Below, in pieces: positions 1 to 11,846 of a stretch of DNA of 11,846 nucleotides. Every line of letters begins with the position of its first letter. Position 1 is the stretch's first letter. Position numbers and translations under genes: made by a program. The DNA lies in the IMG/VR virus record IMGVR_UViG_2579779084_000004, positions 1 through 11,846 of that record, one strand, 5' to 3'. This DNA is from a virus (lineage: Duplodnaviria; Heunggongvirae; Uroviricota; Caudoviricetes). The notes below the pieces were generated by a model. That model searched no databases and had not been told where the DNA came from. It was given only the letters and a program-made list of their open reading frames with translations.

Positions 1-176
1 GCGGTTTTTGTCAGTTTTTTGGATGCCAGCAACTGATTGAACATATTTCCTGGTTTGCCACCACCTATATACGACCAACGCCCCCACATCCGTAATTTCC
101 CCTGGATCCAGACGGCTTCCAGCGTTTTTAGACGTAAATGCTCGCCGCTTTTGCCTGTAATTTCCGGGTATATCAT
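1..176 (-). CDS. Partial CDS (N-terminal 58 codons, continues past window start): possible late-gene antiterminator Q-like protein
   Basis: ATG at 176 (minus) reads open to position 1: MIYPEITGKSGEHLRLKTLEAVWIQGKLRMWGRWSYIGGGKPGNMFNQLLASKKLTKT. The WG-W motif and the position immediately downstream of rusA fit lambdoid Q genes. No clear SD; assignment from memory of Q N-termini only. Confidence 0.35.
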   Translation of the reverse strand, partial: MIYPEITGKSGEHLRLKTLEAVWIQGKLRMWGRWSYIGGGKPGNMFNQLLASKKLTKT

Positions 177-184
177 ATTTACGA

Positions 185-550
185 TCACTCACTCTCAATT
201 TTGTAAATCTTCACGCCCAGCCGCCCCCCAGGAACGAGCTGACCGCGCACAATATTGATTTCATCAAACTGCTCGTCGTCTATGAGAAGTCCGGCATGCG
301 TCAGCGCATCCAGTGGTGCTTTCAGGATATTGTCCAGGTCACGACGACGTTTATCCGGTGGCTCTGCAATAATCTTTATCGCCAGCCTTCCGGACAGGTT
401 TAATTTCAGCCGCTGCTGGCGAACAATAAGCGCCACATCACGGCGATAACGCTCACCGGCTTTTGATACAAAATATGTGCTGCCACGACGTCGCCAGTAA
501 GTGTTCACCGTTGGCGGGTAAGGCAAAACAAATTCTATGCGTTCAGTCAT
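185..550 (-). CDS. rusA: RusA-family Holliday junction resolvase (crossover junction endodeoxyribonuclease)
   Basis: 121-aa ORF with ATG start; contains the DKRRRDLDN motif and overall resemblance to E. coli RusA. Its ATG directly abuts the upstream stop (TGAATG), typical nin-region context. Confidence 0.88.
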   Translation of the reverse strand: MTERIEFVLPYPPTVNTYWRRRGSTYFVSKAGERYRRDVALIVRQQRLKLNLSGRLAIKIIAEPPDKRRRDLDNILKAPLDALTHAGLLIDDEQFDEINIVRGQLVPGGRLGVKIYKIESE

Positions 551-1609
551 TCATGCTTTCCACTTCAGGACACCCGAATTTCTCGCGTGCATTAAAAAAC
601 GAATCAGCAACAACAGCTGGCTGCCGTGTTTTTCTTCAAAATCTTTTACCCCGGCGTGTAGTTCGCTATGGCATTTACGGCACAGCGGAATAACAAACAA
701 ATCATCAGCCTTTGTTCCCATCCCTCCCAGTCCATGACCCATGATATGATGCGGATCATCTGCCTGATTGCCACACGTCATGCATTTCTGCGTTTTTACC
801 CAACGCGTGTATACAGGCATCTCTTCCCGTTGTGGTTTCTGGCGCTGGAGATACTGAGCCGGTGACTCCGGATCAACGGCAATGCTGACCACCGTCTTTT
901 CCTGTGGTGGATTCTGTTGCTGGTGGGCGTGAGGCAACGGCGCAATATTTTTTGTGCGCTGCTTCAGTATGCTGATGGCGGTCTGCTCTCCCGGTACGAT
1001 GTCGCTCTCGCGGTATACTGAGCGGATTTTTTCACCCGGAAGCTTCAGGATTCGACGCGCCATATTTTCGGTCATGGCATCCACTACATCATTTACAGAA
1101 GCCCAGCAGCACAATTCAGCCAGCGATAATTCCCGCTCCTGCGTGCCATTCACTGCATGGCGTATGACGTCAATCATCCATGCTGACAGGTTTTGATGAG
1201 CAAGTTGCCCGAGTGATTCGGAGGTCTGGTCACGCAGCTGGTTGTCGCAGTGCCAGCACAACACCATTGCGCCGATACCATAACGATGTATGACGGTTTC
1301 GCTGTGATGATAATCGCCGTGTGGCCACTGGCAGGATTTAACGTGGCGTAACAGCCAGTCAGACAGCGCACCAGCACCGCCAGCAGCACGAATCACCCGC
1401 TCATCGCTGAAAAATGGCAGTAGTGATTTATCCTCCGCCAATGGCTGGCGAACGGCAGGAACGACTCCGGACGGCAGACCGCGCATGCTTTTCGGTTCCG
1501 GCTCCACCAGTACACGACCGCTGCGGAATACCTGCATGGATTCACGACCAGGCTTAAGGACCACCAGCCCAAGTTCCGGTACCGGAACAGATCGAAGTAA
1601 TACCCGCAC
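551..1609 (-). CDS. DUF968-like phage protein with Cys/His-rich (HNH/zinc-finger-like) segment
   Basis: 352-aa ORF with GTG start at 1609 preceded by GGAGG at 4-5 nt spacing. Contains CMTCGN...HHIMGHG...CRKCHSELH; sits immediately upstream of rusA as DUF968 genes do in E. coli prophages. Confidence 0.65.
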   Translation of the reverse strand: MRVLLRSVPVPELGLVVLKPGRESMQVFRSGRVLVEPEPKSMRGLPSGVVPAVRQPLAEDKSLLPFFSDERVIRAAGGAGALSDWLLRHVKSCQWPHGDYHHSETVIHRYGIGAMVLCWHCDNQLRDQTSESLGQLAHQNLSAWMIDVIRHAVNGTQERELSLAELCCWASVNDVVDAMTENMARRILKLPGEKIRSVYRESDIVPGEQTAISILKQRTKNIAPLPHAHQQQNPPQEKTVVSIAVDPESPAQYLQRQKPQREEMPVYTRWVKTQKCMTCGNQADDPHHIMGHGLGGMGTKADDLFVIPLCRKCHSELHAGVKDFEEKHGSQLLLLIRFLMHARNSGVLKWKA

Positions 1610-1610
1610 G

Positions 1611-1883
1611 TTACCTCCAGAACCGTTGCTGGAATGTGCGGGACGGACGCGGTGGGCGTTCGGAATAAGGGAGTCTGACGTAGATTATCCAGTGACGATA
1701 ATCGAGGCTGAGGGCTTTCTTAATCTCGTATCCGTGTCTGCGGTAGCGCTGAATCAGCCATTCGGCCTGTTCTTCAGTACATGGTGGGTGTTGGTACCAG
1801 TCGGTTTTAAATGCGTGTGAACGCCGCCCATGCCGGATGGCAAGGGCGGTATCAGAATTGTGAAATTTGGTTTTGTGCGCCAT
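1611..1883 (-). CDS. Hypothetical phage nin-region protein (90 aa)
   Basis: ATG at 1883 (MAHKTKFHNSD...), downstream of a terminator hairpin; stop sits 1 nt before the DUF968 GTG. The track's longer GTG start at 2042 would place the terminator inside the gene. No strong SD. Confidence 0.4.
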   Translation of the reverse strand: MAHKTKFHNSDTALAIRHGRRSHAFKTDWYQHPPCTEEQAEWLIQRYRRHGYEIKKALSLDYRHWIIYVRLPYSERPPRPSRTFQQRFWR

Positions 1884-1952
1884 CGGTTGTCTCTGCTGGC
1901 GCAGCAGGTGCCAGTTGTTCAGGCTGGCGTGCGAATTGTAAACCAGAATGCC

Positions 1953-1983
1953 AGGAAAAAACAAAACCCGCCGAAGCGGGTTA
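1953..1983 (-). terminator. Rho-independent terminator (probable 3' end of the hok mRNA)
   Basis: Plus-strand aacccgc-cgaa-gcgggtt (1965-1982) is a 7-bp stem with tetraloop; on the minus strand it is followed by TTTGTTTTTTCC. Lies about 70 nt downstream of the hok stop. Confidence 0.55.
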
Positions 1984-2050
1984 AGTGCGGGTGCGTTGAG
2001 GATGCCTGACTCATCAGAGGTGGCGAGGGATTTCTCCCTCACCTGGTCTC

Positions 2051-2206
2051 TTACTCCTCAGGTTCGTAAGCTGTGAAGACAGCGACCTCCGTCTGGCCGG
2101 TTCGGATTCGTACCTCGCAGAGGTCTTTCCTCGTTACCAGTGCCGTCACTATGACGGTTAAACAGATGACGATCAGGGCGATTAACATCGCCTTTTGCTG
2201 CTTCAT
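2051..2206 (-). CDS. hok: Hok/Gef-family type I toxin (51 aa, HokD/RelF-like membrane peptide)
   Basis: ATG at 2206 gives MKQQKAMLIALIVICLTVIVTALVTRKDLCEVRIRTGQTEVAVFTAYEPEE, which I recognise as Hok family: single TM helix plus the conserved C-terminal TGQTEVAVF motif. Confidence 0.85.
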   Translation of the reverse strand: MKQQKAMLIALIVICLTVIVTALVTRKDLCEVRIRTGQTEVAVFTAYEPEE

Positions 2207-2263
2207 AGCCTGCTTCCCCTTGCCTTTCGGCACGTAAGAGGCTAACCTACATTTGTGAGACAT
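2051..2263 (-). CDS. mok: Mok-like in-frame leader reading frame (70 aa) overlapping hok
   Basis: ATG at 2263 with GAGG 8 nt upstream; the N-terminal extension MSHKCRLASYVPKGKGKQA- is in frame with hok, as in chromosomal mokC/hokC. Confidence 0.45.
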   Translation of the reverse strand: MSHKCRLASYVPKGKGKQAMKQQKAMLIALIVICLTVIVTALVTRKDLCEVRIRTGQTEVAVFTAYEPEE

Positions 2264-2330
2264 AGATTGGGCCTCAGATTAATGTTAAGCGTCTTGCAGG
2301 ACGCGTAATGTTAACTGGGGCTTTTCTCTA
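2230..2330 (+). ncRNA. sok: Sok-like antisense RNA region (boundaries approximate)
   Basis: Inferred from hok/sok architecture: antisense to the hok leader and mok initiation region. A plus-strand TTGCCT...TAACCT promoter-like pair lies near 2219-2247. No clean terminator identified, so ends are uncertain. Confidence 0.3.
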
Positions 2331-2375
2331 TCTGCCTTTTGGTGTTCATGCCTGAGACAGATAGCCTCAAGCACC

Positions 2376-2420
2376 CGCAGTTATTCTACTTAACTAAGAT
2401 TTCCCCGCAAACCGTTTTTG
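2376..2420 (-). promoter_or_regulatory. Probable hok mRNA promoter and 5' end
   Basis: Minus strand reads TTGCGG-16 nt-TAGAAT (-10 at 2383-2388). The predicted transcript start GGGUGCUUGAGGCUAUCUG... resembles the 5' end of R1 hok mRNA as I recall it. Confidence 0.35.
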
Positions 2421-2465
2421 TCCGGCACAGTAAATATCCAACTAAACCAATGGCGTTCGCTGTAT

Positions 2466-2645
2466 TTACCGCCAGTATTCAATGCACATGACCGCCATGA
2501 ACACCCCTAAAAAAAGGGCATTTATATGTCCAAACATTAATATCAAAACATCAATTTTTTCCATATACCTTGCTGTGAAGATGATGGGCATACATGATGC
2601 GAACAACCAGAACGCAACAAACAAAAACTGCAATGCGTTTTTCAT
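2466..2645 (-). CDS. Putative small hydrophobic membrane protein (59 aa) in AT-rich island
   Basis: ATG at 2645 preceded by GGGGG with 4-nt spacing; MKNALQFLFVAFWLFASCMPIIFTARYMEKIDVLILMFGHINALFLGVFMAVMCIEYWR has two hydrophobic stretches. AT-rich codon usage; no homolog recognised. Confidence 0.3.
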   Translation of the reverse strand: MKNALQFLFVAFWLFASCMPIIFTARYMEKIDVLILMFGHINALFLGVFMAVMCIEYWR

Positions 2646-2765
2646 TATTCCCCCTACAATCAATGTGCAATAACATTTAAACACACCTCAATTTGGCCGG
2701 ACATATAAATATCTAAACCAGAAAAAATCACTTACATAGCGTTACAAACTCTTTAGTCTAAATAT

Positions 2766-3281
2766 TCATCGTAAAACATCCTCCACGCTTATCAGTCCAT
2801 TTGGTTTCAGGTAATCCATCGCCTTCTCCGGTAATTTGCAGTCCGGCTGAGCTTTTTTCAGTTGACTGACCAGTCGTTTAACCCACATTGTTAATTCGCT
2901 AACCTGATTGCCGGATGCTGGTGGATTGTCGGCTTTACCCAGAATGGCAGCGCAGCAGGCCTCTCTGAGCACCCAGTCAACAGCATCCTTCCATGCTCCT
3001 GTTTCGACTGGCGGATTCTCACGCTTTACCTGTTCATAAAAGCGCACGGCTTTAACCAGTCCTTCTGATGTCACCGGGACTGGCGGGCCGATGAATAAGG
3101 CCTGAATTTCATAGTTCGGCCTGTCGTTACAATCCTCTTTTGTCGGTACATATTTCCAGTCACCAGCCCACGGCTTCCCCTGAAAGTCTGTAACGTCTTT
3201 TTTCACGTAGCGATATCGCCATGCAACTGGTTTTGCCTGCCCTGCCGTTTCATGCCCTTCCTGATAATTAATCTCGCTCAT
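2766..3281 (-). CDS. Hypothetical phage protein (171 aa)
   Basis: ATG at 3281 overlaps the upstream stop (ATGA); long ORF with normal composition. No family recognised. Confidence 0.55.
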   Translation of the reverse strand: MSEINYQEGHETAGQAKPVAWRYRYVKKDVTDFQGKPWAGDWKYVPTKEDCNDRPNYEIQALFIGPPVPVTSEGLVKAVRFYEQVKRENPPVETGAWKDAVDWVLREACCAAILGKADNPPASGNQVSELTMWVKRLVSQLKKAQPDCKLPEKAMDYLKPNGLISVEDVLR

Positions 3282-3454
3282 TCATCGCCCCACTCATCAC
3301 AATATGCTTCGATCGGAGTTTTTCCTGCTTCATAATCATCACGCCATGCTTCAGCATCAGCAGCACTGCCACCACGTAACTCTGCATAGTCCATTAACAG
3401 TTCATGCCATTCTTCAAAACTGACGTTGTATTTAGTTGAACCAAAATCAGCCAT
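3278..3454 (-). CDS. Small acidic protein (58 aa), absent from the ORF track (below length cutoff)
   Basis: Hand translation from ATG 3454: MADFGSTKYNVSFEEWHELLMDYAELRGGSAADAEAWRDDYEAGKTPIEAYCDEWGDE. GAGGAAG SD lies upstream; start overlaps the upstream stop (ATGGCTGA) and the stop overlaps the next ATG (ATGA). Confidence 0.45.
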   Translation of the reverse strand: MADFGSTKYNVSFEEWHELLMDYAELRGGSAADAEAWRDDYEAGKTPIEAYCDEWGDE

Positions 3455-3629
3455 TTTGTTCTTCCTCTTCGTCTTTTATTTCGTGATATGAGTAATTGCA
3501 GTAGTTAAAGAAAATATCTTTTGCTTCGTCATGTATTTCATCAGGCGTCGCATCATCATCCACTTCGAATTCATCCTCGAAATCTCCACCGGCTATTCCC
3601 GTTTCAATAATTATTTTAAACTTTCGCAT
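3447..3629 (-). CDS. Small highly acidic protein (60 aa; about 20 Asp/Glu against 5 Lys/Arg)
   Basis: ATG at 3629; AGGAGG SD at 3653-3658 is separated from the ATG by a 16-nt GAAA-tetraloop hairpin. Sequence MRKFKIIIETGIAGGDFEDEFEVDDDATPDEIHDEAKDIFFNYCNYSYHEIKDEEEEQNG. Confidence 0.5.
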   Translation of the reverse strand: MRKFKIIIETGIAGGDFEDEFEVDDDATPDEIHDEAKDIFFNYCNYSYHEIKDEEEEQNG

Positions 3630-3636
3630 TTAACTA

Positions 3637-3652
3637 CCGCCCTTTCGGGCGG
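3637..3652 (-). promoter_or_regulatory. Stable hairpin (CCGCCC-GAAA-GGGCGG) between SD and start codon: split ribosome binding site
   Basis: Perfect 6-bp GC stem with GNRA-type loop on the mRNA strand, flanked 5' by AGGAGG and 3' by 7 nt then ATG. Confidence 0.5.
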
Positions 3653-3722
3653 CCTCCTGATGTTCTGAGGGTGCAGAAATCCCTCCGGTTAAGGATTAAA
3701 TTTTTAACAGAGCTAAATTTAA

Positions 3723-4079
3723 TTATTCAGTTCTGGATTTTGTCGCCCTGCGTATCCGCGCTTTCGCGTTACGCTCAATCTGAATTAGCTTTTCTATATT
3801 TTTTCGCCTTTCCCGCTCCTCCTGACGCAAGAGCCTTACATCATCTGCCAGTCTGGTTTCTCTTTTCGCCACAGAGAGCATCCAGTCAAATGGCTCCACA
3901 ACTGCACCGCATATTTTACAGCGGACCTGACGCTCTTTTTCGTCAACCCGGACAGAGGCGTGATGACAATATGGTCTTTCCGATGGCTCATAAAGAAAAT
4001 TAACCTGATTACGAGGGTCATCCTCTTTTACCGGAAATAAAACGATATTGCTTAACTCATCCTCTGGTTTTATTTCCAT
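3723..4079 (-). CDS. Hypothetical protein (118 aa) with Cys/His cluster and basic coiled-coil-like C-terminus
   Basis: ATG at 4079 with GGAGAGGAG upstream; YCHH...CKICG cluster and a C-terminal Arg/Lys/Glu-rich segment. Overlaps the upstream gene by 23 bp. Confidence 0.55.
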   Translation of the reverse strand: MEIKPEDELSNIVLFPVKEDDPRNQVNFLYEPSERPYCHHASVRVDEKERQVRCKICGAVVEPFDWMLSVAKRETRLADDVRLLRQEERERRKNIEKLIQIERNAKARIRRATKSRTE

Positions 4080-4518
4080 GCTCCTCTCCTTTGATGCGAA
4101 TGCCAGCGACGCGTAATGCGTGTTCTAAGTCAATCAGGTAAAGCCAACTGCCATTTTCTTTAGGTATCATGACATGTCGCTCATCTGCATTTATCGGGTG
4201 TCCATATCGAAGGTCGTAGCGAGTCGGTAATTGAACTTCCCGCGCTTCCAGTTCAGCAATACGCTTGCTCCCATCAGAGATAACGCCTTCGTAATACTCA
4301 CGCTGCTCGTTGAGTTGTGATTTTGCTTCTTCCAGTCCATCCAGCAAATCAGCGATAATATCCGCTTCCCGATGACGGATGTGACGCTTAAACGCAGCAA
4401 GAGCCGCATCACAATCCCGTTCAGCATTTGGGCTGTCCGGGATAGCCTGATACCACGCCAGCGTCGACTGATAGTTTTGTGCTGCCTCACGAAGCGCCTC
4501 ATAGTTAACCTCTCTCAT
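4057..4518 (-). CDS. Hypothetical phage early protein (153 aa)
   Basis: ATG at 4518 preceded by AGGAGGTGG; ATGA overlap with the upstream gene. No family recognised with confidence. Confidence 0.55.
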   Translation of the reverse strand: MREVNYEALREAAQNYQSTLAWYQAIPDSPNAERDCDAALAAFKRHIRHREADIIADLLDGLEEAKSQLNEQREYYEGVISDGSKRIAELEAREVQLPTRYDLRYGHPINADERHVMIPKENGSWLYLIDLEHALRVAGIRIKGEEHGNKTRG

Positions 4519-4811
4519 TGAGCCACCTCCTGATAAATCACCGCATGCCCCAGTTTCTCCGCCAGTGCCAGCTCTGCCTTAGCGCCCGCTGACCGCTGCC
4601 AGCCTTTCAGCATGTAAATCGCATCCACACAACGAATCATTGCCATGCAAATATCCATGTAGTGCGGCTGTGTCAGCCCGTCCGGAAGTACTGCCGGGTT
4701 CAAGACTGTATGCCCTTCCCGTTTCAGTTCCTCTTCCGCCTTGTGGAACGCCTCACGGTTGAAATTTTTATACCCGGTCATTGGACCGGCAATATAAACT
4801 CTCACCCTCAC
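4515..4811 (-). CDS. DUF4406-like protein (nucleoside 2-deoxyribosyltransferase-like fold), 98 aa
   Basis: GTG start at 4811 (GTGA overlap with upstream stop); N-terminal YIAGPMTG...NF..F...AEE.L...GH.V.NPA pattern recalled for DUF4406 proteins. Confidence 0.55.
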   Translation of the reverse strand: MRVRVYIAGPMTGYKNFNREAFHKAEEELKREGHTVLNPAVLPDGLTQPHYMDICMAMIRCVDAIYMLKGWQRSAGAKAELALAEKLGHAVIYQEVAQ

Positions 4812-5125
4812 TCCTGAACTCTCCTGTCGAAATAAACGTAGTTATTCACTGTGCGCAACGGCATTCCAAATTTTCTGGCGATTTCTCTCCTGGGTACGCC
4901 ACGCTGATGCAGCTGTCGCGCCAGTTCAATATCACTCTGCGGATATTTTGTTGACTGGTGATAATCACCCCGTAACATCAGGCTGACACCCAGTTCCCGC
5001 GCTTTCGTTCTGACAGCATCACCTGTACGACCGGTCAGCCTCCCAATGCTTTCGACCGTCATCGTTCCCGCACACTGCCGGAGTATCATGATTTCAGCCT
5101 CGTACCACTTCTTCCAGCCACTCAC
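4808..5125 (-). CDS. Small helix-turn-helix DNA-binding protein (105 aa)
   Basis: GTG start at 5125 (GTGA overlap) with GGAGAG upstream; HTH-like segments [21 protein letters not shown] and [19 protein letters not shown]. Confidence 0.5.
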
Positions 5126-5883
5126 CGCTGCAGCTCTCCGGTCGCGGTAATATCACGAAGAATATCCCGGTGCTTGTTCAGCTCCCGCAGCGCGGCGCAG
5201 ACTCGTTCCCACTTCTGGACATGACTTTTCGCCCGACGCAGTTCGAGGTTTGCCATATGCAGCGATGGTAAAATCAGGTCATCCGCTCGCGTTTCAGTAA
5301 ACGATGGCAGCGACTGCACAATGCCCGCTACAGTTTCTGTTTTAATTTCTTCCTGTGTTGCGGCTTCCCGGACTGGTAACGCAACACCTGCTGGCTGAGG
5401 AAAGGCCTTACCATCATTTTCCGTTACCGATGCTGCTTTCGGCTCTGCTGGTAAATTACCGCCCGGCATGCAGTAACGAAATTTACCGCTCTGATTAACG
5501 CGTGCCAGCCGCCCCGTTGCAGTTACCACCGCCAGCGTGGAAGCAACCTTGCGAGTACTGATGCCGAACTTACCCGCCAGTTCCTCACACGTTTTAGCCC
5601 CATCCTGACCGATAAACTCAATCATCATGTCTGCTGTAACTTTTTGTTCGACCTCCCCGGTCAGCATATCCTGTGCTTCAGATTTTACTGGCCGCTCTTC
5701 GGTTACCAGGGATTCACTTTCGCCAGCCAGAAACCAGGTGTGACCAGTTTTATCAACGACGCCATTTCTTTTGAGTTCCCACAGCTCGTTGAGAACCTCT
5801 TCACGACTGATATCAAGTCGCGCGGCCAGTTCTACCGATGTGGCTTTTCCCATTGCTTTCAGTGCGTCAAAAACGGTTTCCAT
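5122..5883 (-). CDS. Phage protein with tandem winged-helix-like segments (253 aa; DUF977/DUF1627-like, occupying the Rac ydaW position)
   Basis: ATG at 5883 with GGAGGAAA SD 5 nt upstream; two HTH-like segments ([27 protein letters not shown] and [23 protein letters not shown]). Family name uncertain. Confidence 0.6.
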
Positions 5884-5904
5884 TAAAATTTCCTCCGGAC
5901 AAAA

Positions 5905-6651
5905 TTACTTCACAACCCTCAGGTGTCTGACATTCGAACGCCAGCTCTCCCAGTTAAAATTCACCCAGCGACCACCGTTCATGACCATGCGGTCCATCAC
6001 ACGCTCGCCAAGAAGCGTACTCATCGCTACGTGGTTCAGGTTCGTCAGCATTCCGACACTACGCATCGAAGCCGTTCTGCGGTCGACTATCTGGTTCAGT
6101 GTGACCTGCTCGTTGCGCGTATCCCGCTGCATTCCGATTTCATCCAGGACAAGCAGGTCAACATCACACAACCCCTGTAAAAATTTTTCGCCTGAGTTTT
6201 TGTTGTCGTAGCTGTTGTGTAACGCCAGCATCACATCAGCCACCGTTATCACAATCACGCTGCGACCTTTCGCCAGAAGATGATTGCCAATGGCGGCTGC
6301 AAGGTGGTTCTTTCCGGTACCCGGCTTACCGCTGAACACAAAATTCGTGCACCCGGTCATCAGTTCGTCAGCGATGGATTTTGCCTGGCTCAGCGCATGT
6401 TTTTGCCCGTCGTTCTGCACCTGATAATTCGCAAACGAGCATTTGCTGTGCAGAGGCTGGATGCCCGAACGATTCAGGATTTTTTCCACCCGCAACTGGC
6501 GATTCTGGCGGTTGATCTCCTCGCTACGTTTTCGCCCTTCTGCCAGTTGCCACTCGCGCCACTCGTCCACTGTCCGGTACGGCGCGATTACATGCTGCGG
6601 GGTCAGCTTACGGATACGCTCAAGAACACCACCTGTCGCGATATTTTTCAT
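5905..6651 (-). CDS. DnaC-like replicative helicase loader (AAA+ ATPase; Rac YdaV-like)
   Basis: 248-aa ORF with Walker A GKPGTGKNHLA and Walker B LLVLDEIG; resembles DnaC/IstB-type loaders and sits immediately downstream of the initiator gene. Confidence 0.88.
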   Translation of the reverse strand: MKNIATGGVLERIRKLTPQHVIAPYRTVDEWREWQLAEGRKRSEEINRQNRQLRVEKILNRSGIQPLHSKCSFANYQVQNDGQKHALSQAKSIADELMTGCTNFVFSGKPGTGKNHLAAAIGNHLLAKGRSVIVITVADVMLALHNSYDNKNSGEKFLQGLCDVDLLVLDEIGMQRDTRNEQVTLNQIVDRRTASMRSVGMLTNLNHVAMSTLLGERVMDRMVMNGGRWVNFNWESWRSNVRHLRVVK

Positions 6652-6657
6652 GGCCCG

Positions 6658-7623
6658 TTACCCCCTGAACCCCGGCGGAATTTCGGTATCCGGCTCAGAA
6701 ATATGATTCACGCAACGCTGTACAGACGAACGCCCCAGGCGGATAACCAGTTCATCCCATTTTTCGCGAAGCTTTGACGGACTCATGATATTTTTTACCC
6801 AGAATGGATCCCGCTGCGCCCGACCAAACATTTCACAAATTTGTCTGTGAGTTCTGCCATCCAGCATCCGCATTGTGCGCACGTCGTTGGCCCATGCGGT
6901 CCAGTTGGGTTCTTTCGGTCGCGAAATCTCGCCATCATCGCTGGCGGCCTGCTCGTAAAGACTCACGATTCGTCCCCAGATCCACTGCGCACACGCCAAA
7001 TCTTCCTGGTTGCCCCACTGGCGTTTTTTTGCACTGAACACAACCGCGTCAGGGTGTCGGGTTAAAAAATCCTGTTCAACCGTCTGCGGGTCCGGTTGCG
7101 AAGCTTCCGGACGAGAAGTGTTTTTATTCTCTGTAGTAATCTCTGTTGTATTCTCTGTAAGATCATCAGGCCATTTTGACCCGATGACATTGAGTCGTTT
7201 TGAACCAATGGAACGTGCCATTTTGGCCCCTTCCATCGTGTCATTCTGACCTGATGGAGCAGCGCATTTTGACCTGATGGATTCGCTCACTTTGCCACCA
7301 TTTAAAAGCTCGCTCTCGTAATTAATCGTGTAAAAATTAGTCATATCACGCTTTGATTTATTGAGCTTTTCGCAACGCAAAAGCCCCAGCGTTTTCAGAC
7401 TTGCAAATGCGCGTTTTAACGTTGACTCTGACCAGAACGGGAACTGCTCCAGCCATTGTTCTGTTGTGTTATAAATCCAGCGAACACCATCACATTCCAT
7501 GCCGGAACCGGTATCTCTCAACCAGTAATGCAACTGCTGCAACACGATGGCTTCGTTCAGACCAATTTTCATCGCCAGCTGCGTGTTTATAACCAGCGGA
7601 CGTTCAGCAAAAAGGAGCTTCAT
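6658..7623 (-). CDS. Replication initiation protein (lambda O-like replisome organizer), 321 aa
   Basis: ATG at 7623 (MKLLFAERPLVINTQLAMKIGLNEAIVLQQLHYWL, typical phage replisome-organizer N-terminus). The central low-complexity region is encoded by DNA iterons; the C-terminal domain precedes the DnaC-like gene. Confidence 0.78.
   Translation of the reverse strand: MKLLFAERPLVINTQLAMKIGLNEAIVLQQLHYWLRDTGSGMECDGVRWIYNTTEQWLEQFPFWSESTLKRAFASLKTLGLLRCEKLNKSKRDMTNFYTINYESELLNGGKVSESIRSKCAAPSGQNDTMEGAKMARSIGSKRLNVIGSKWPDDLTENTTEITTENKNTSRPEASQPDPQTVEQDFLTRHPDAVVFSAKKRQWGNQEDLACAQWIWGRIVSLYEQAASDDGEISRPKEPNWTAWANDVRTMRMLDGRTHRQICEMFGRAQRDPFWVKNIMSPSKLREKWDELVIRLGRSSVQRCVNHISEPDTEIPPGFRG
7172..7375. 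repeat. Probable origin of replication: five ~23-bp-spaced iterons plus adjacent AT-rich segment, inside the initiator gene
   Basis: Direct repeats of consensus CATTTTGACC(Y)GATGGA starting at 7172, 7196, 7219, 7242 and 7265, followed by an AT-rich stretch around 7300-7375. Confidence 0.6.
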
Positions 7624-7643
7624 CCCCCCCCCAGAACACGTTA

Positions 7644-8069
7644 TCAATGCGCCACCACGGCATTTCCCGCCGGACCACCACGATTCATCTGATCGAACAA
7701 CACGATCGCTGCCGCAACAAACTCATCGATATCTTTCACCAGGCGCTCCCGTCGCTCGACAAGCTCCCGGTGATATTCCGAACTGTGGCTGCGCATTCGG
7801 GCCACCAGTGGAGGCGGCATTGCTTTTTCGATCGCCGGTAACAACGCCTGAATTTTTTTAACCGCATCAGGGGTGTCTTTTTCTACCCAGCGGAAAATTT
7901 TCTGGGTATTACGAGACAGGGCTTCCGGATGGCTGTCGTCATACAGTTCAGGAAACGTCATCCCCAGTTCGAAATAAGTCCGGGCTATTTCAGCTGCAGG
8001 AACTTTCTCACCATCAGGGTATGCCCAGGCATTCATCGCCATGCGGATGTGCTCATGTTTGATTTTCAT
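7644..8069 (-). CDS. ydaT: YdaT-like protein (CII-like regulator of Rac-type prophages)
   Basis: 141-aa ORF beginning MKIKHEHI, which I recall as the Rac YdaT N-terminus; immediately downstream of the Cro-like gene. Confidence 0.75.
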   Translation of the reverse strand: MKIKHEHIRMAMNAWAYPDGEKVPAAEIARTYFELGMTFPELYDDSHPEALSRNTQKIFRWVEKDTPDAVKKIQALLPAIEKAMPPPLVARMRSHSSEYHRELVERRERLVKDIDEFVAAAIVLFDQMNRGGPAGNAVVAH

Positions 8070-8376
8070 GAATCATTTGCCTCTTGATGCTTCGGGTATG
8101 ATCGTTTTCGTCATTTGGTTGCTTCATCGACATATTCTGCGAATAACATGACGAGCGTCGTAAGTATGTCCAATCAACATCAGGACGAAGTTCTTCACAC
8201 AGGACACCACCTTTTGTTGCTCGTTCAATCGCAGGACATCTCTCAGCAGGTAACTGACGTACACCTTTGATCCATTGATTTACGCTTGGAGGAGATACAC
8301 CTAAAAGCCTAGCCATTGCTGATTGCCCACCGACAACAGCACAAGCTCGTTTGAATGAATAGTTATCTTTTTTCAT
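8053..8376 (-). CDS. ydaS: YdaS-like Cro-type HTH repressor
   Basis: ATG at 8376 with GGAG 8 nt upstream; MKKDNYSFKRACAVVGGQSAMARLLGVSPPSVNQWIKGVRQLPAERCPAIERATKG closely resembles Rac YdaS. Divergent from the CI-like gene. Confidence 0.8.
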   Translation of the reverse strand: MKKDNYSFKRACAVVGGQSAMARLLGVSPPSVNQWIKGVRQLPAERCPAIERATKGGVLCEELRPDVDWTYLRRSSCYSQNMSMKQPNDENDHTRSIKRQMIHENQT

Positions 8377-8403
8377 CGAATGAACTCCAAAAAACACGCA
8401 ACA

Positions 8404-8474
8404 ATATTAGGCTTAGCCTAATGAAATTGTCAATAGGCTAAGCCTAATACATCGGGAGTAGGGATTGCCTAACG
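8404..8474. promoter_or_regulatory. Divergent immunity control region: three 17-bp palindromic operators (TTAGGC-N3-GCCTAA) overlapping a PR-like promoter for ydaS and the racR promoter
   Basis: Operators at 8406-8422 (perfect palindrome ATTAGGCTTAGCCTAAT), 8432-8448 and 8458-8474 (one mismatch). Minus-strand promoter: -35 TTGACA (8428-8433), 18-bp spacer, -10 TAATAT (8404-8409). Confidence 0.6.
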
Positions 8475-8500
8475 CGATGCGCATAGGAGACTATTAAGCA

Positions 8501-8977
8501 ATGCTTAGTGGTAAAGACTTAGGCCGAGCGATAGAGCAGGCCATTAACAAAAAAATTGCATCAGGAGCCGTCAAATCAAAGGCGGAAATCGCACGTCATT
8601 TCAAAGTCCAACCACCATCAATCCATGACTGGATTAAGAAAGGTTCGATAAGTAAAGACAAACTTCCAGAACTATGGCGTTTCTTTTCTGATGTGGTTGG
8701 TCCAGAGCATTGGGGGCTTAACGAATACCCCATACCAACCCCATCCACTTCAGATACAAAAAGTGAACTTTTAGACATAAACAGCCTTTATCAAGCCGCC
8801 TCTGATGAAAAAAGAGCAATTGTGGCTTTCATCTTATCTGGAAATGCTACGGAGCCTAGTTGGGTTGATCATGACGTTCGCGCCTACATTGCCGCAATGG
8901 AAATGAAGGTAGCTAACTATCTGAAAAATCAAGAATCAAAACGGAAAAGCCAGAACATCACCAAGACAGGAACTTAA
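8501..8977 (+). CDS. racR: RacR-like prophage repressor (CI-like, 158 aa)
   Basis: MLSGKDLGRAIEQAINKKIASGAVKSKAEIARHFKVQPPSIHDWIKKGSISKDKLPELW... matches Rac RacR as I recall it; N-terminal HTH; AGGAG SD upstream; divergent from the Cro-like gene. Confidence 0.82.
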   Translation: MLSGKDLGRAIEQAINKKIASGAVKSKAEIARHFKVQPPSIHDWIKKGSISKDKLPELWRFFSDVVGPEHWGLNEYPIPTPSTSDTKSELLDINSLYQAASDEKRAIVAFILSGNATEPSWVDHDVRAYIAAMEMKVANYLKNQESKRKSQNITKTGT

Positions 8978-9070
8978 ACTTATATGGTCCGACGGGAAAT
9001 TCCTAGTTCCCGTTAGTTAACTCCTACTACCTCTTCCACAAACCATCACCTATTAGGTTGCGCCCAAATT

Positions 9071-9114
9071 ATTAGGCATAGCCTATTGACAAGTAATTAG
9101 GCATTTCCTATAGT
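9071..9114 (+). promoter_or_regulatory. PL-like early promoter with overlapping operators
   Basis: -35 TTGACA (9086-9091), 17-bp spacer, -10 TATAGT (9109-9114). Operator ATTAGGCATAGCCTATT (9071-9087) overlaps the -35; a second copy (9095-9111) overlaps the spacer/-10; a degenerate third lies near 9051-9067. Confidence 0.65.
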
Positions 9115-9295
9115 TTTCCCATACCAACCCATCCCGTCCCACACAATACAGGGCAATACCTCGAGTTACCAGGCAGTGGTCAGGGGTTAAGTAGCCAGCC
9201 CGAGGCGTAAGAACATGACGGCAGGGTTCAACTTTAATAACTATGCAGCAGGTTTTTGTTCCGCTACCCCGGCGTTAAGGGGAAATGAGGTCAAC

Positions 9296-9451
9296 ATGGA
9301 TACTATCGATCTTGGCAACAACGAATCTCTGGTATGTGGCGTGTTCCCCAACCAGGACGGTACGTTCACCGCGATGACGTATACCAAAAGCAAAACGTTT
9401 AAAACCGAAAATGGTGCCCGTCGCTGGCTGGAAAGAAACTCAGGTGAGTGA
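9296..9451 (+). CDS. ydfA: Small protein, YdfA/YdaF-like (DUF1391-type, 51 aa)
   Basis: ATG at 9296 with GAGG 6 nt upstream; MDTIDLGNNESLVCGVFPNQDGTFTAMTYTKSKTFKTENGARRWLERNSGE. First gene after the PL-like promoter, as in the Qin dicB operon. An in-frame ATG at 9215 would give a 78-aa alternative. Confidence 0.6.
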   Translation: MDTIDLGNNESLVCGVFPNQDGTFTAMTYTKSKTFKTENGARRWLERNSGE

Positions 9452-9452
9452 T

Positions 9453-9581
9453 ATGGATTTCGACACAATCATGGAAAAGGCTTACGAAGAATACTTCGAA
9501 GGCCTTGCCAAAGGCGAAGAAGCTCTCAGCTTCAGTGAGTTTATACAGGCGCTTTCCAGCTCGGCAAAATCTAACGGCTGA
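9453..9581 (+). CDS. ydfB: Small protein, YdfB/YdaG-like (42 aa), absent from the ORF track
   Basis: Hand translation from ATG 9453: MDFDTIMEKAYEEYFEGLAKGEEALSFSEFIQALSSSAKSNG; AGGTGA SD 5 nt upstream; starts 1 nt after the preceding stop. Confidence 0.55.
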   Translation: MDFDTIMEKAYEEYFEGLAKGEEALSFSEFIQALSSSAKSNG

Positions 9582-9610
9582 TAAGCGAAGCAGCACCGCG
9601 AGGAATCAGT

Positions 9611-9850
9611 ATGCAGAAACGAGAACCCGTCATCATCGCGCCAGACTATACCGATGATGAACTTTATGAGTGGATGCACCAGAAAATTAAGGCTGCGCAG
9701 GACCTGAAATGGGCCAATGAAGCCAGGGCTAAGCAAGCTGAAAATCTGTCCGCTCTGGAGCAGGATATCACCAATCTGGAAAAAGCAGCGGCATTAAGCA
9801 TTGCCAAGAATGATTACATACCCACGTTAATGGCTAACCAACGAGGCTAA
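9611..9850 (+). CDS. Small protein, YdfC-like (79 aa)
   Basis: ATG at 9611 with GAGGAA SD 5 nt upstream; coiled-coil-like AKQAENLSALEQDITNLEKAAA. Position matches ydfC in the Qin dicB operon; length differs from what I recall, so no symbol assigned. Confidence 0.55.
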   Translation: MQKREPVIIAPDYTDDELYEWMHQKIKAAQDLKWANEARAKQAENLSALEQDITNLEKAAALSIAKNDYIPTLMANQRG

Positions 9851-9852
9851 TA

Positions 9853-10260
9853 ATGGAATTTAAAGATTTACCAAAAGAAATCCAGATAATTGCTGCAACG
9901 ACACTCGGTGATAGTCTGCTGAAAATTGACCCGGCATACACCAAAAAAGAAACCATCGATAATATGGTTCGTAATGTGCGCAATGCTTTTTCAGGGCTAT
10001 ATGGTTCTGATAATCAAAAACAGGAAAACGATATTGATGAACGGGTAATTTCTGTTTGCCTGAATGGTCATGTTATTTCAGCAATCAGAACAGAAACGGC
10101 AACTGCTTTTGATTATCTCTGCATGATTCAGAGTCTTGCTGATGTTCTGTTGAAATCAAAAGATTTAGAAAACGATGCAAATTTACAGGGGCGCACAATA
10201 GCACATCCATATGCACATACTTTAGGCTCTGTGGATATCAAAGATCCCACAAATCTTTAA
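9853..10260 (+). CDS. Hypothetical protein (135 aa), AT-rich, no recognised family
   Basis: ATG at 9853 sits 2 nt after the ydfC-like stop with GAGG 6 nt upstream, so it is co-transcribed with the early operon. Composition is markedly more AT-rich than flanking genes. Confidence 0.55.
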   Translation: MEFKDLPKEIQIIAATTLGDSLLKIDPAYTKKETIDNMVRNVRNAFSGLYGSDNQKQENDIDERVISVCLNGHVISAIRTETATAFDYLCMIQSLADVLLKSKDLENDANLQGRTIAHPYAHTLGSVDIKDPTNL

Positions 10261-10471
10261 TGAAATAGTTAACGCGAATTGTACTTGCTCTTTCAGTTGC
10301 TTTCAGAATACGCGTTGAAACTGCTGGCGGTAATTTAGTATTCCATTTATTAAAATCATGCCCGGAAAAGTACTCTTCGAAAATACTTTTAACTGCAGAC
10401 TCGCCTATTGAAATGCTGCTTACCATGCGATTTTGATAAAGGCATTTAGCAATAAGAGTTGATTTTAACAT
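10238..10471 (-). CDS. Hypothetical protein (77 aa), convergent with and overlapping the 3' end of the 135-aa gene
   Basis: ATG at 10471 preceded by AGGAGGG at 4-nt spacing; AT-rich; 23-bp 3' overlap with the plus-strand gene. No family recognised. Confidence 0.45.
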   Translation of the reverse strand: MLKSTLIAKCLYQNRMVSSISIGESAVKSIFEEYFSGHDFNKWNTKLPPAVSTRILKATERASTIRVNYFIKDLWDL

Positions 10472-10794
10472 TCACCCTCCTGAGGGTTGGTAATTAAGGA
10501 GTTCTCCACGGGTGAGGTGGAGTGCGTGCGCCGGACACGGGTGAGCATCCGGCACTGACAGTTTACTGAAAGGATATATCCCTGAAAAGTCAGGGCATAA
10601 CACGAAAGCGTACGGCGAAGGCCTTCACCTATGAGGCTTGTCGTTAAATTTAATTCGACCGTACGCTTCCGGTTGTGGCAATCCGCGAAATGGCGCGGCG
10701 GTAAGTATGGCAGGGGTACTATTCTCCCTCCCCTGTGGAGCACCGGGTTGTCAGGTTGACCATACGCTTAAGTGACAACTCCGCTGCAACAACC

Positions 10795-10857
10795 CATGCT
10801 GATTACCTTTTGGCGGGTATCCGTTTTTTGTTTTCCCTTGTGATACCCGCCCTTTTT
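10795..10857 (+). ncRNA. dicF: DicF-like small RNA (divergent variant) with intrinsic terminator
   Basis: UUUGGCGGGUAUC...GAUACCCGCCCUUUUU forms a 10-bp stem (10812-10821 with 10842-10851) plus U5 tail, resembling the K-12 DicF 3' region as I recall it. Lies about 180 nt upstream of dicB, as in Qin. Confidence 0.5.
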
Positions 10858-11040
10858 AAAGTGAATTTTGTGATGCGGTGAATGCGGCTCAGCGCACGCG
10901 GAACAGTTAAAAAGGCCAGTTGACTTCCGTATTGGTTCTTATGGGTGGGTTCTCTGTATCCGGCGTTAATTGTTAACTGGTTAACGTCACCTGGAGGCAC
11001 CAGGCGCCGCATCACAAAATTCATTGTTGAGGACGCGATA

Positions 11041-11229
11041 ATGGAAACGTTATTACCAAACGTCAATACGTCTGAAGGTTGTTTTGAAATTGGTGTCAGA
11101 ATCAGTAACCCTGTATTTACTGAAGATGCCATTAATAAGAGAAAATACGAACGGGAGCTATTAAATAAAATATGCATTCTTTCAATGCTGGCCCGTTTAC
11201 GCCCGATGCAAAAAGGATACTGGCAATGA
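11041..11229 (+). CDS. dicB: DicB cell-division inhibitor (62 aa)
   Basis: ATG at 11041 with GAGGA SD; METLLPNVNTSEGCFEIGVRISNPVFTEDAINKRKYERELLNKICILSMLARLRPMQKGYWQ is near-identical to K-12 DicB as I recall it. Confidence 0.85.
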   Translation: METLLPNVNTSEGCFEIGVRISNPVFTEDAINKRKYERELLNKICILSMLARLRPMQKGYWQ

Positions 11230-11429
11230 ATACTGCTATTGCCCTCACTCTGACTGTTTTTCTTAATACTGGCGAGCCTGTTGACATGGTTATTAACATT
11301 TACGGTTCAATGAAAGAATGCATAGCTGCCGCAGCAGAACAAAAAATTCCCGGTAACTGCTATCCGGTCGATAAAGTTATTCACATGGATAATAACGAAA
11401 TCCCGGCAGGACTTAAAACAGCGCCGTAA
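11226..11429 (+). CDS. ydfD: YdfD-like small protein (67 aa; hydrophobic N-terminus), translationally coupled to dicB
   Basis: ATG at 11226 overlaps the dicB stop (ATGA); MNTAIALTLTVFLNTGEPVDMVINIYGSMKECIAAAAEQKIPGNCYPVDKVIHMDNNEIPAGLKTAP; position as ydfD in Qin. Confidence 0.55.
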   Translation: MNTAIALTLTVFLNTGEPVDMVINIYGSMKECIAAAAEQKIPGNCYPVDKVIHMDNNEIPAGLKTAP

Positions 11430-11508
11430 TTAATATCCGGTTTCATTTTATATGCCAGCAATGGCAGGGATTTGTTCACCCTTAAATCTGTAATGAGGTT
11501 AAAACAAC

Positions 11509-11846
11509 ATGAGTAAAGTCTTTATTTGCGCCGCTATTCCGGACGAACAGGCAATAAAGGAAGAAGGTGCAGTCGCTGTAGCCACTGCCATTGAAGCTGG
11601 CGACGAACGCCGCGCCCGTGCCAAATTTACCTGGCAATTCCTGGAGCAATATCCGGCTGCTCAGGACTGCGCTTATAAATTTCTTGTTTGCGAGGATAAA
11701 CCCGGTATACCCCGCCCTGCCCTCGATTCCTGGGATGCTGAATATATGCAGGAAAACCGCTGGGATGAGGAGTCAGCTTCCTTTGTCCCGGTTGAGACTG
11801 AATCAGATCCGATGAACGTCACTTTTGACAAGCTGGCCCCTGAAGT
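11509..11846 (+). CDS. Partial CDS (N-terminal 112 codons, runs off window end): probable RecE-like exodeoxyribonuclease VIII
   Basis: ATG at 11509 with GAGG upstream; open to the window end (MSKVFICAAIPDEQAIKEEGAVAVATAIEAGDERRARAKF...). The N-terminus resembles prophage exonuclease VIII annotations as I recall them, and the position matches recE in Rac. Confidence 0.45.
   Translation, partial: MSKVFICAAIPDEQAIKEEGAVAVATAIEAGDERRARAKFTWQFLEQYPAAQDCAYKFLVCEDKPGIPRPALDSWDAEYMQENRWDEESASFVPVETESDPMNVTFDKLAPE

Follow-up and report, generated by a model that had tools for sequence, protein, structure and literature searches.

A Shine-Dalgarno-hairpin cassette recurrent at Escherichia coli prophage gene junctions: a candidate split ribosome binding site for an acidic DUF7167 protein

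Two acidic genes and the start site of the first

The DNA analysed here is a stretch of 11,846 nucleotides (nt), positions 1 to 11,846 of the IMG/VR virus record IMGVR_UViG_2579779084_000004 (Caudoviricetes), hereafter called the window. It represents the early-right (nin) region of an Escherichia coli lambdoid prophage, with its genes on the minus strand, and contains two overlapping genes for very acidic small proteins of 60 and 58 amino acids (aa), the first of which has a Shine-Dalgarno sequence (SD) separated from its start codon by a hairpin (Table 1). Both open reading frames (ORFs) are genuine genes and come from two unrelated phage families, and the pair proposed by the initial annotation from the letters of the sequence is backed by family matches and RefSeq annotation. 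Its charge estimate for the 60-aa product, about 20 Asp/Glu against 5 Lys/Arg with an EEEE tail, was exact (D9 + E11 against K4 + R1, net charge -15, tail DEEEEQNG), and the 58-aa product is strongly acidic as well (16 acidic against 4 basic residues, net -12). The same annotation had listed the 58-aa gene as missing from the ORF track; a mechanical ORF list does include it.

The 60-aa protein is a full-length member of the Pfam family DUF7167 (55.1 bits with a cut-off of 24.4, residues 2–53 on profile positions 1–60) and is labelled "DUF7167 family protein" in RefSeq. The RefSeq label of the 58-aa protein is "hypothetical protein"; its PHROG match is confined to the C-terminal part, and a Pfam search with it gave no match. 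An exhaustive DUF7167 profile search returned 224 cluster representatives at E ≤ 0.001, nearly all of them about 55 aa long, with a mean net charge of -11.8 and a common start M-R/K-K-F/I-K, a shared beginning that identifies the ATG at 3629 as the true start. For the 58-aa family, 156 homologs were found by profile search (mean net charge -9.1). The 8-nt overlap between the two genes is preserved in 165 of the 202 copies from IMG/VR, all of this E. coli clade, and the SD-like element of the 58-aa gene (GAGGAAG) lies within the EEEE codons of the 60-aa gene. The 58-aa gene and the next gene, of 171 aa, would be translated by coupling (8-nt and 4-nt overlaps). Twenty of the 202 DUF7167 copies are shortened to 36 aa, via a frameshift or an internal mosaic joint.

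Table 1. Coordinates of the acidic genes and of the elements around the DUF7167 start site in the window
Feature	Position	Strand	Details
58-aa acidic protein gene	3278..3454	-	PHROG 519, E = 2.9e-22; RefSeq WP_000753058.1
60-aa DUF7167 protein gene	3447..3629	-	Pfam PF23768, E = 7.9e-15; PHROG 1997, E = 9e-31; RefSeq WP_001224662.1
8-nt overlap ATGGCTGA	3447..3454	-	stop of 60-aa gene / start of 58-aa gene; sequence, SD scan
A/U-rich 7-nt spacer UAGUUAA	3630..3636	-	between hairpin base and AUG; in-frame TAA inside
Hairpin CCGCCC-GAAA-GGGCGG	3637..3652	-	predicted pair probability ≥ 0.995; 7 pairs with G3653.U3636
SD AGGAGG	3653..3658	-	23 nt upstream of ATG 3629; duplex with 16S 3' end, -10.3 kcal/mol
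26-nt junction cassette TCAGGAGG-CCGCCCGAAAGGGCGG-TA	3635..3660	-	repeat search, family D4 in L001
Rest of 93-nt leader	3661..3722	-	weaker hairpin GAGGG (3686-3682)/CCCTC (3672-3668); AAUCCUUAAC (about 3698-3689) carrying UCCU

The arrangement described in the initial annotation, an SD 23 nt from the ATG with a perfect hairpin in the gap, was recovered exactly. The hairpin occupies 16 of the 23 nt, and 7 nt are left between SD and start codon on folding, as had been expected, or 5 nt if the flanking G.U pair forms. The 41-nt start-site segment has a predicted folding energy of -15.5 kcal/mol, essentially all of it from the hairpin. No other all-GC 6+4+6 hairpin exists in the 11.8-kb window, and the chance that a random 23-mer with the window's composition contains a perfect hairpin of at least 6 bp is P = 0.0066. 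Among the 17 genes of the window, the DUF7167 gene is the only one with a strong SD more than 15 nt from its start, and in the SD scan the other genes with a clear SD-like site have it at 0–10 nt. The sole SD candidate at a canonical distance is GGGCGG (-8.3 kcal/mol, 7 nt from the ATG), which forms the stem's 3' arm and has a predicted pairing probability of about 1.0. A promoter and terminator scan of positions 3000–4300 on both strands found no sites, and the leader had no match in Rfam, the window's only Rfam match being sok.

Recurrence of the cassette and conservation of its parts

The SD and the hairpin belong to a unit of 24–26 nt (21-nt core GGAGGCCGCCCGAAAGGGCGG) that is found at several E. 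coli prophage gene junctions with different genes on either side. The hairpin-split layout that the initial annotation saw in front of the 60-aa gene is present, while its reuse at several gene junctions had been overlooked. A 30-nt query centred on the cassette gave 4375 matches, spread over 2528 of the 5426 complete E. coli genomes and never annotated. The flanks were surveyed by scanning the collected loci for an SD followed by hairpin, short spacer and start, and by scanning IMG/VR for the 21-nt core with other right flanks. At least six right-hand and at least three left-hand partners were found, and one prophage holds two copies. In the ATCC 25922 prophage (L001 3037-3062), the cassette TCGGGAGGCCGCCCGAAAGGGCGGTA is separated by 6 nt from the ATG of a downstream DUF4014 gene. 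This gene lacks an SD of its own, and its start is backed by a Pfam alignment over positions 1–72 of 72. Starts without their own SD also follow the cassette at a 43-aa ORF (8 nt, four copies), a DUF4014 variant (6 nt, one copy) and a gene starting MAELIGE (8 nt, one copy). One copy, on a metagenomic contig (L255 11415-12071), is within a reading frame: the core forms part of the 5' end of a P2-type small-terminase ORF and codes there for QEAARKGG.

On its left, the cassette is joined to a leader of the window type, to the stop codon of a 70-aa gene or to unrelated sequence. The 70-aa gene (MLNTQKAINAEKYNEW...; L019 1254-1466, L001 2822-3034) has no Pfam match and fills the space of the window's empty leader. 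In an alignment with L019, its SD, GGAGG, coincides with the sequence that in the window makes the 5' arm of the weaker, upstream hairpin, and the leader segment 3661..3722 corresponds to the repeats D2/D3 in L001. Because the leader aligns with the ribosome binding site (RBS) region of the 70-aa gene, it looks like an empty site after loss of that gene. In L019-type loci a mosaic junction falls about 3 nt 5' of the SD; therefore, SD and hairpin travel with the DUF7167 gene. At two loci (L079 and L134), runs of 8–10 G replace ATTTCTGCA in the loop of the upstream leader hairpin, which may reflect an artefact of sequencing or a tract prone to slippage.

Conservation of the stem was assessed in a redundant sample of 197 copies. 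The stem is perfect in 148 of these, carries only G.U wobbles in 29 and has a compensatory A-U pair in two (CCACCC/GGGTGG, the single compensatory pair found), and all six pairs are kept in 179 copies (91%). The SD is kept or nearly kept in its variants (AGGAGA, AGGGGG, CGGAGG), and the loop may change from GAAA to GGCA, GAGA, GTCA or TAAA with the stem intact. The spacer varies in sequence (TAGTGAA, TAACATA, TAAACCA, TAATGA) and is 7 nt long, once 6 nt. Relatives with 74–80% protein identity keep both arms of the stem and a spacer length of 6–7 nt, with loops and spacer changed. By hand count, the 72 leader columns hold about 20 substitution events, nearly all of them in loops, spacer and linker; only one, a wobble, is in the 24 stem columns. 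Among the DUF7167 genes compared, the predicted split layout is restricted to one sub-clade.

Directly upstream of the start, window position 3632 (-3 to the ATG) is polymorphic (T/G), with TAA in 28 and GAA in 42 haplotypes, and the GAA allele opens an upstream frame (P0002, P0003, P0143). For alleles whose upstream stops are lost, gene callers give 87–146-aa "DUF7167" proteins, including an apparent DUF7446 fusion, and these long products are probably annotation artefacts. For annotation, the loss of an upstream stop thus probably means that the DUF7167 ORF is called too long.

Proposed bridged initiation and its alternatives

As read from the sequence, a split RBS is the best explanation for the translation of the 60-aa gene. 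The 30S subunit would bind SD and AUG on either side of the hairpin base, in the manner of bacteriophage T4 genes 38 and 25, and the hairpin would then be a structural part of the RBS. As the stem is so stable, it would not act as a switch or thermosensor, and translation would depend on the structure. The closest model is the T4 gene 38 start site, to which the initial annotation had likened the site. Read from NC_000866 (AAGGAG-AGGGGC UUCG GCCCUU-CUAAAU-AUG), it has the same layout and similar stability (-16.7 kcal/mol over 50 nt, with -15.9 for the DUF7167 site). In both phages a strong SD abuts a GC-rich stem of 6–8 bp with a stable tetraloop, followed by an A/U-rich spacer of 5–7 nt and the AUG. 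Folding shortens the SD-AUG spacing from 22 to 5 nt in T4 gene 38 and from 27 to 11 nt in gene 25, and mutations that destabilise the T4 split site lower initiation (PMC3014915); the corresponding change at the DUF7167 gene would be from 23 to 5–7 nt. The loop differs (UUCG in T4, GAAA here), the T4 site is experimentally validated whereas ours is predicted from the sequence, and the T4 site serves one gene, whereas the cassette is common to several unrelated genes and sits at mosaic junctions. Gene 25, with its split translation initiation region (Nivinskas 1999; Malys and Nivinskas 2009, as summarised in PMC3014915), is similar in that structure shortens the distance between SD and AUG and in that the layout is limited to a sub-clade, with ordinary sites in distant relatives. 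It differs in that the T-even structure is backed by phylogenetic comparison, reporter fusions and dimethyl sulphate (DMS) probing, whereas covariation in the DUF7167 leader is not significant.

Beyond this gene, the cassette is most likely a portable hairpin-bridged RBS for accessory genes without their own SD, a reading that we place at or slightly above an even chance, because three unrelated ORFs lacking an SD start 6–8 nt after it and because it mirrors the validated T4 site. A second role would be in recombination, as the short stretch of identity where modules are exchanged. As a whole (genes, bridged RBS and portable cassette), this is our best explanation of the locus, with the chances evenly balanced. 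A further-reaching version seems improbable: the cassette would be a dedicated mobile module for translation initiation and recombination, through which E. coli prophages could take up accessory genes lacking an RBS, and its cargo here, DUF7167 and the 58-aa protein, would newly be inhibitors of host defence or repair proteins that target nucleic acids.

Several observations weigh against bridged initiation. Stem mismatches occur in 13 of the 197 copies (about 7%), and five more carry a 14-nt deletion that removes the SD. Over 42 distinct leader haplotypes, covariation analysis gave 96.0% paired positions in the observed and 96.0% in the shuffled data. Distant DUF7167 genes have ordinary SDs with stop/start coupling. 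In the window itself, the GGGCGG arm is a weak SD-like site at an ideal distance, and the hairpin could be inhibitory instead. The SD is also about 50% paired with an upstream UCCU (about 3695-3692) in the predicted ensemble, a pairing that RNAalifold returns as well; the UCCU is not part of the core unit, since its segment is missing in L019-type loci, where SD and hairpin are intact. At other junctions, a Q-antiterminator-like gene 11 nt to the right of the cassette has its own SD (GGAGA, 5 nt before the ATG; 28 copies), and eight copies are followed by no same-strand gene, with an AT-rich convergent two-gene insert in the L256-type loci. As the Q-like gene has its own SD and the convergent insert provides no same-strand gene, a translation role cannot account for every copy. 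For the structure-dependent translation proposed by the initial annotation, the T4-like geometry and stability, the ATG set by homology, the lack of another SD outside the predicted stem, the linkage of SD and hairpin to the gene and the cassette copy before DUF4014 stand on one side, and the covariation null and the copies with mismatched stems on the other.

The main rival would make the SD-hairpin only a module-boundary linker or a hairpin for mRNA stability or processing, neutral or inhibitory for translation, with DUF7167 translated poorly, by standby binding, or by the weak GGGCGG when the stem breathes. Boundary or linker sequences at lambdoid module junctions reportedly feature in the Susskind-Botstein modular theory and in the work of Clark et al. 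2001 on HK620. This alternative fits the many right-hand and left-hand partners, including the gene with its own SD and the convergent insert, the covariation null, and the persistence of mismatch and deletion alleles. Short identical sequences have been proposed as one route to lambdoid mosaicism (PMC2327257), and like such linkers the cassette is a short identical intergenic sequence with different flanking genes in different phages. Unlike them, it has a defined RNA-level anatomy, in which a perfect SD and a stable hairpin keep a set spacing to start codons; this suggests that its retention reflects a function beyond providing homology for recombination. A pure recombination linker needs neither a perfect AGGAGG nor a placement 6–8 nt before three unrelated SD-less ORFs; the spacer is conserved in length and not in sequence, and the overall layout matches the experimentally validated site of T4 gene 38 almost exactly. 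We therefore regard the linker as a serious but rather unlikely explanation.

Much less probable is a weak transcription terminator, pause or nut-like nin site that is read through by phage antitermination. The nin regions of lambda contain terminators, and the GC-rich stem with its GNRA loop has a superficial resemblance to boxB. However, neither strand carries a U-tract (the tail is UAGUUAAAUG), in agreement with the empty terminator scan, no boxA-like match was found near 3637-3700 (-), the site lies deep in the nin region without an Rfam match, and a start codon directly follows the hairpin element. A functionless coincidence between SD and ATG, for which the P value given above and the look-elsewhere effect of free scanning by the initial annotation could be invoked, is extremely improbable, as thousands of sites, unrelated junctions among them, share one identical 21-nt core and diverged relatives keep the stems while loops and spacers change; with the cassette so conserved, chance can be excluded.

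Hairpin-bridged RBSs are known from few cases, chiefly T4 genes 38 and 25. If the bridged reading is true, temperate lambdoid phages would provide a further example, found in roughly half of the sequenced E. coli genomes, and an unusual one, with a bridged RBS that is common to unrelated genes and coincides with mosaic junctions. It would join two questions, namely how accessory genes are expressed after shuffling and where the shuffling takes place. The proteins are members of already catalogued families and the RBS design is already known; the reuse at mosaic junctions is the twist.

The acidic proteins and the surrounding region

Both proteins belong to families without an assigned function (DUF7167/PHROG 1997 and PHROG 519), and membership gives no mechanism. 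The AlphaFold (AF2) model of the 60-aa protein, built on a 51-sequence alignment (predicted local distance difference test, pLDDT, 87.8), has a β-hairpin (residues 2–8 and 17–23), a helix (29–43) and an acidic tail, and the model of the 58-aa protein is a three-helix bundle (pLDDT 88.6). Four acidic positions of DUF7167 (E22, D25, E31, D38) are conserved in 88–96% of members. Searches with both proteins against PDB sequences, PADLOC and NCBIfam found nothing, a fold search gave no match to a known mimic or anti-defence protein, and a literature search using family names, accessions, peptides and the hairpin yielded no relevant paper, phrog_519 being mentioned only in unrelated contexts. The domain fusions of DUF7167 (YopX, DUF7446 by read-through, tandem copies) were not informative, and a "PD-(D/E)XK" label on a Klebsiella homolog stands on a 55-aa coding sequence and was read as an annotation mislabel, not a fusion.

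From charge, position and size, our best guess, which we nevertheless hold less likely than not, is that each acidic protein binds and blocks a host protein, or one of a competing element, that is basic or binds nucleic acids. The proposal of the initial annotation, that the proteins mimic DNA to inhibit restriction or other defences directed against DNA, found no specific support in these searches and has its basis in charge; we consider it unlikely. In its favour are the strong negative net charge of both products, the acidic character of both families throughout, the position-conserved acidic residues, the acidic residues at 30/31/34/35/38 in the predicted helix of the 60-aa protein, which would share one face, and the location of the genes in early or accessory regions, with DUF7167 adjoining an exonuclease gene in Klebsiella and Enterococcus phages. 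T7 Ocr, ArdA and T4 Arn are likewise small, strongly acidic, early or accessory phage proteins, but the acidic pair has no homology or fold match to them. Both proteins are very common uncharacterised prophage genes and reasonable candidates for an anti-defence screen, although such a role has no specific support here.

An obligate two-protein system was rejected, since the two families mostly occur apart and the 58-aa family is found alone in virulent phages, P2-like prophages and Enterobacter lambdoids. It occurs in 198 phage records, mostly virulent phages of about 157 kb infecting Salmonella, Klebsiella and Escherichia (e.g., Det7, PhiSH19), and, again without DUF7167, after Ead/Ea22 in Enterobacter lambdoid prophages and after gpA in P2-like Salmonella prophages. 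In these P2-like prophages (L217-L219 2501-2689), the end of gpA, a replication gene, is overlapped by the gene of the 58-aa family; the latter lies in the variable region, which in one locus also encodes an nSTAND/AAA protein. Conversely, some Klebsiella and Enterococcus phages carry DUF7167 and no member of the 58-aa family, twice with an overlap between DUF7167 and an exonuclease gene. The overlap is seen for distant DUF7167 genes of Klebsiella Guernseyvirinae and Enterococcus Kochikohdavirus phages (L221 3001-4525; L222 2471-3171; L224 2501-4025) and hints at a link with DNA-end metabolism.

A 561-nt region around the acidic genes and their start site has matches in 2556 of the 5426 complete E. 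coli genomes (about 47%), and the acidic-gene region is also present in Stx2a-converting and other coliphages. Scans of genome contigs and of metagenomes for wider loci gave two loci each. An "Actinobacillus" phage record (PP818812.1) and a contig of a "Collinsella" metagenome-assembled genome (JAIHTM010000290.1, L082) carry the prophage region with the acidic genes at 95–98% identity, and host mis-assignment or binning contamination is likely in these records. The convergent insert found directly 3' of the cassette (L256 12067-13550, also L261) encodes a 184-aa multi-pass membrane protein and a 310-aa protein, and looks like a moron or candidate defence cargo.

Apart from the acidic genes, the window contains RusA, DUF968, hok/sok, a zinc-ribbon protein, Ead/Ea22, DUF4406, DUF1627, replication genes and cII/cro/cI-like genes. 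The hok/sok type I toxin-antitoxin locus is complete (2051-2376, minus strand), with a Hok-like ORF at 2051-2263 and the Rfam sok match at 2201-2376 (120 bits); the equivalent gene is annotated as hokD in ATCC 25922. Upstream of the DUF7167 leader and in the same reading frame as the DUF7167 gene lies the 118-aa zinc-ribbon gene (3723-4079, minus strand; PHROG 1621), whose product has a very basic C-terminal tail, and this basic neighbour is conceivable as a partner of the acidic proteins.

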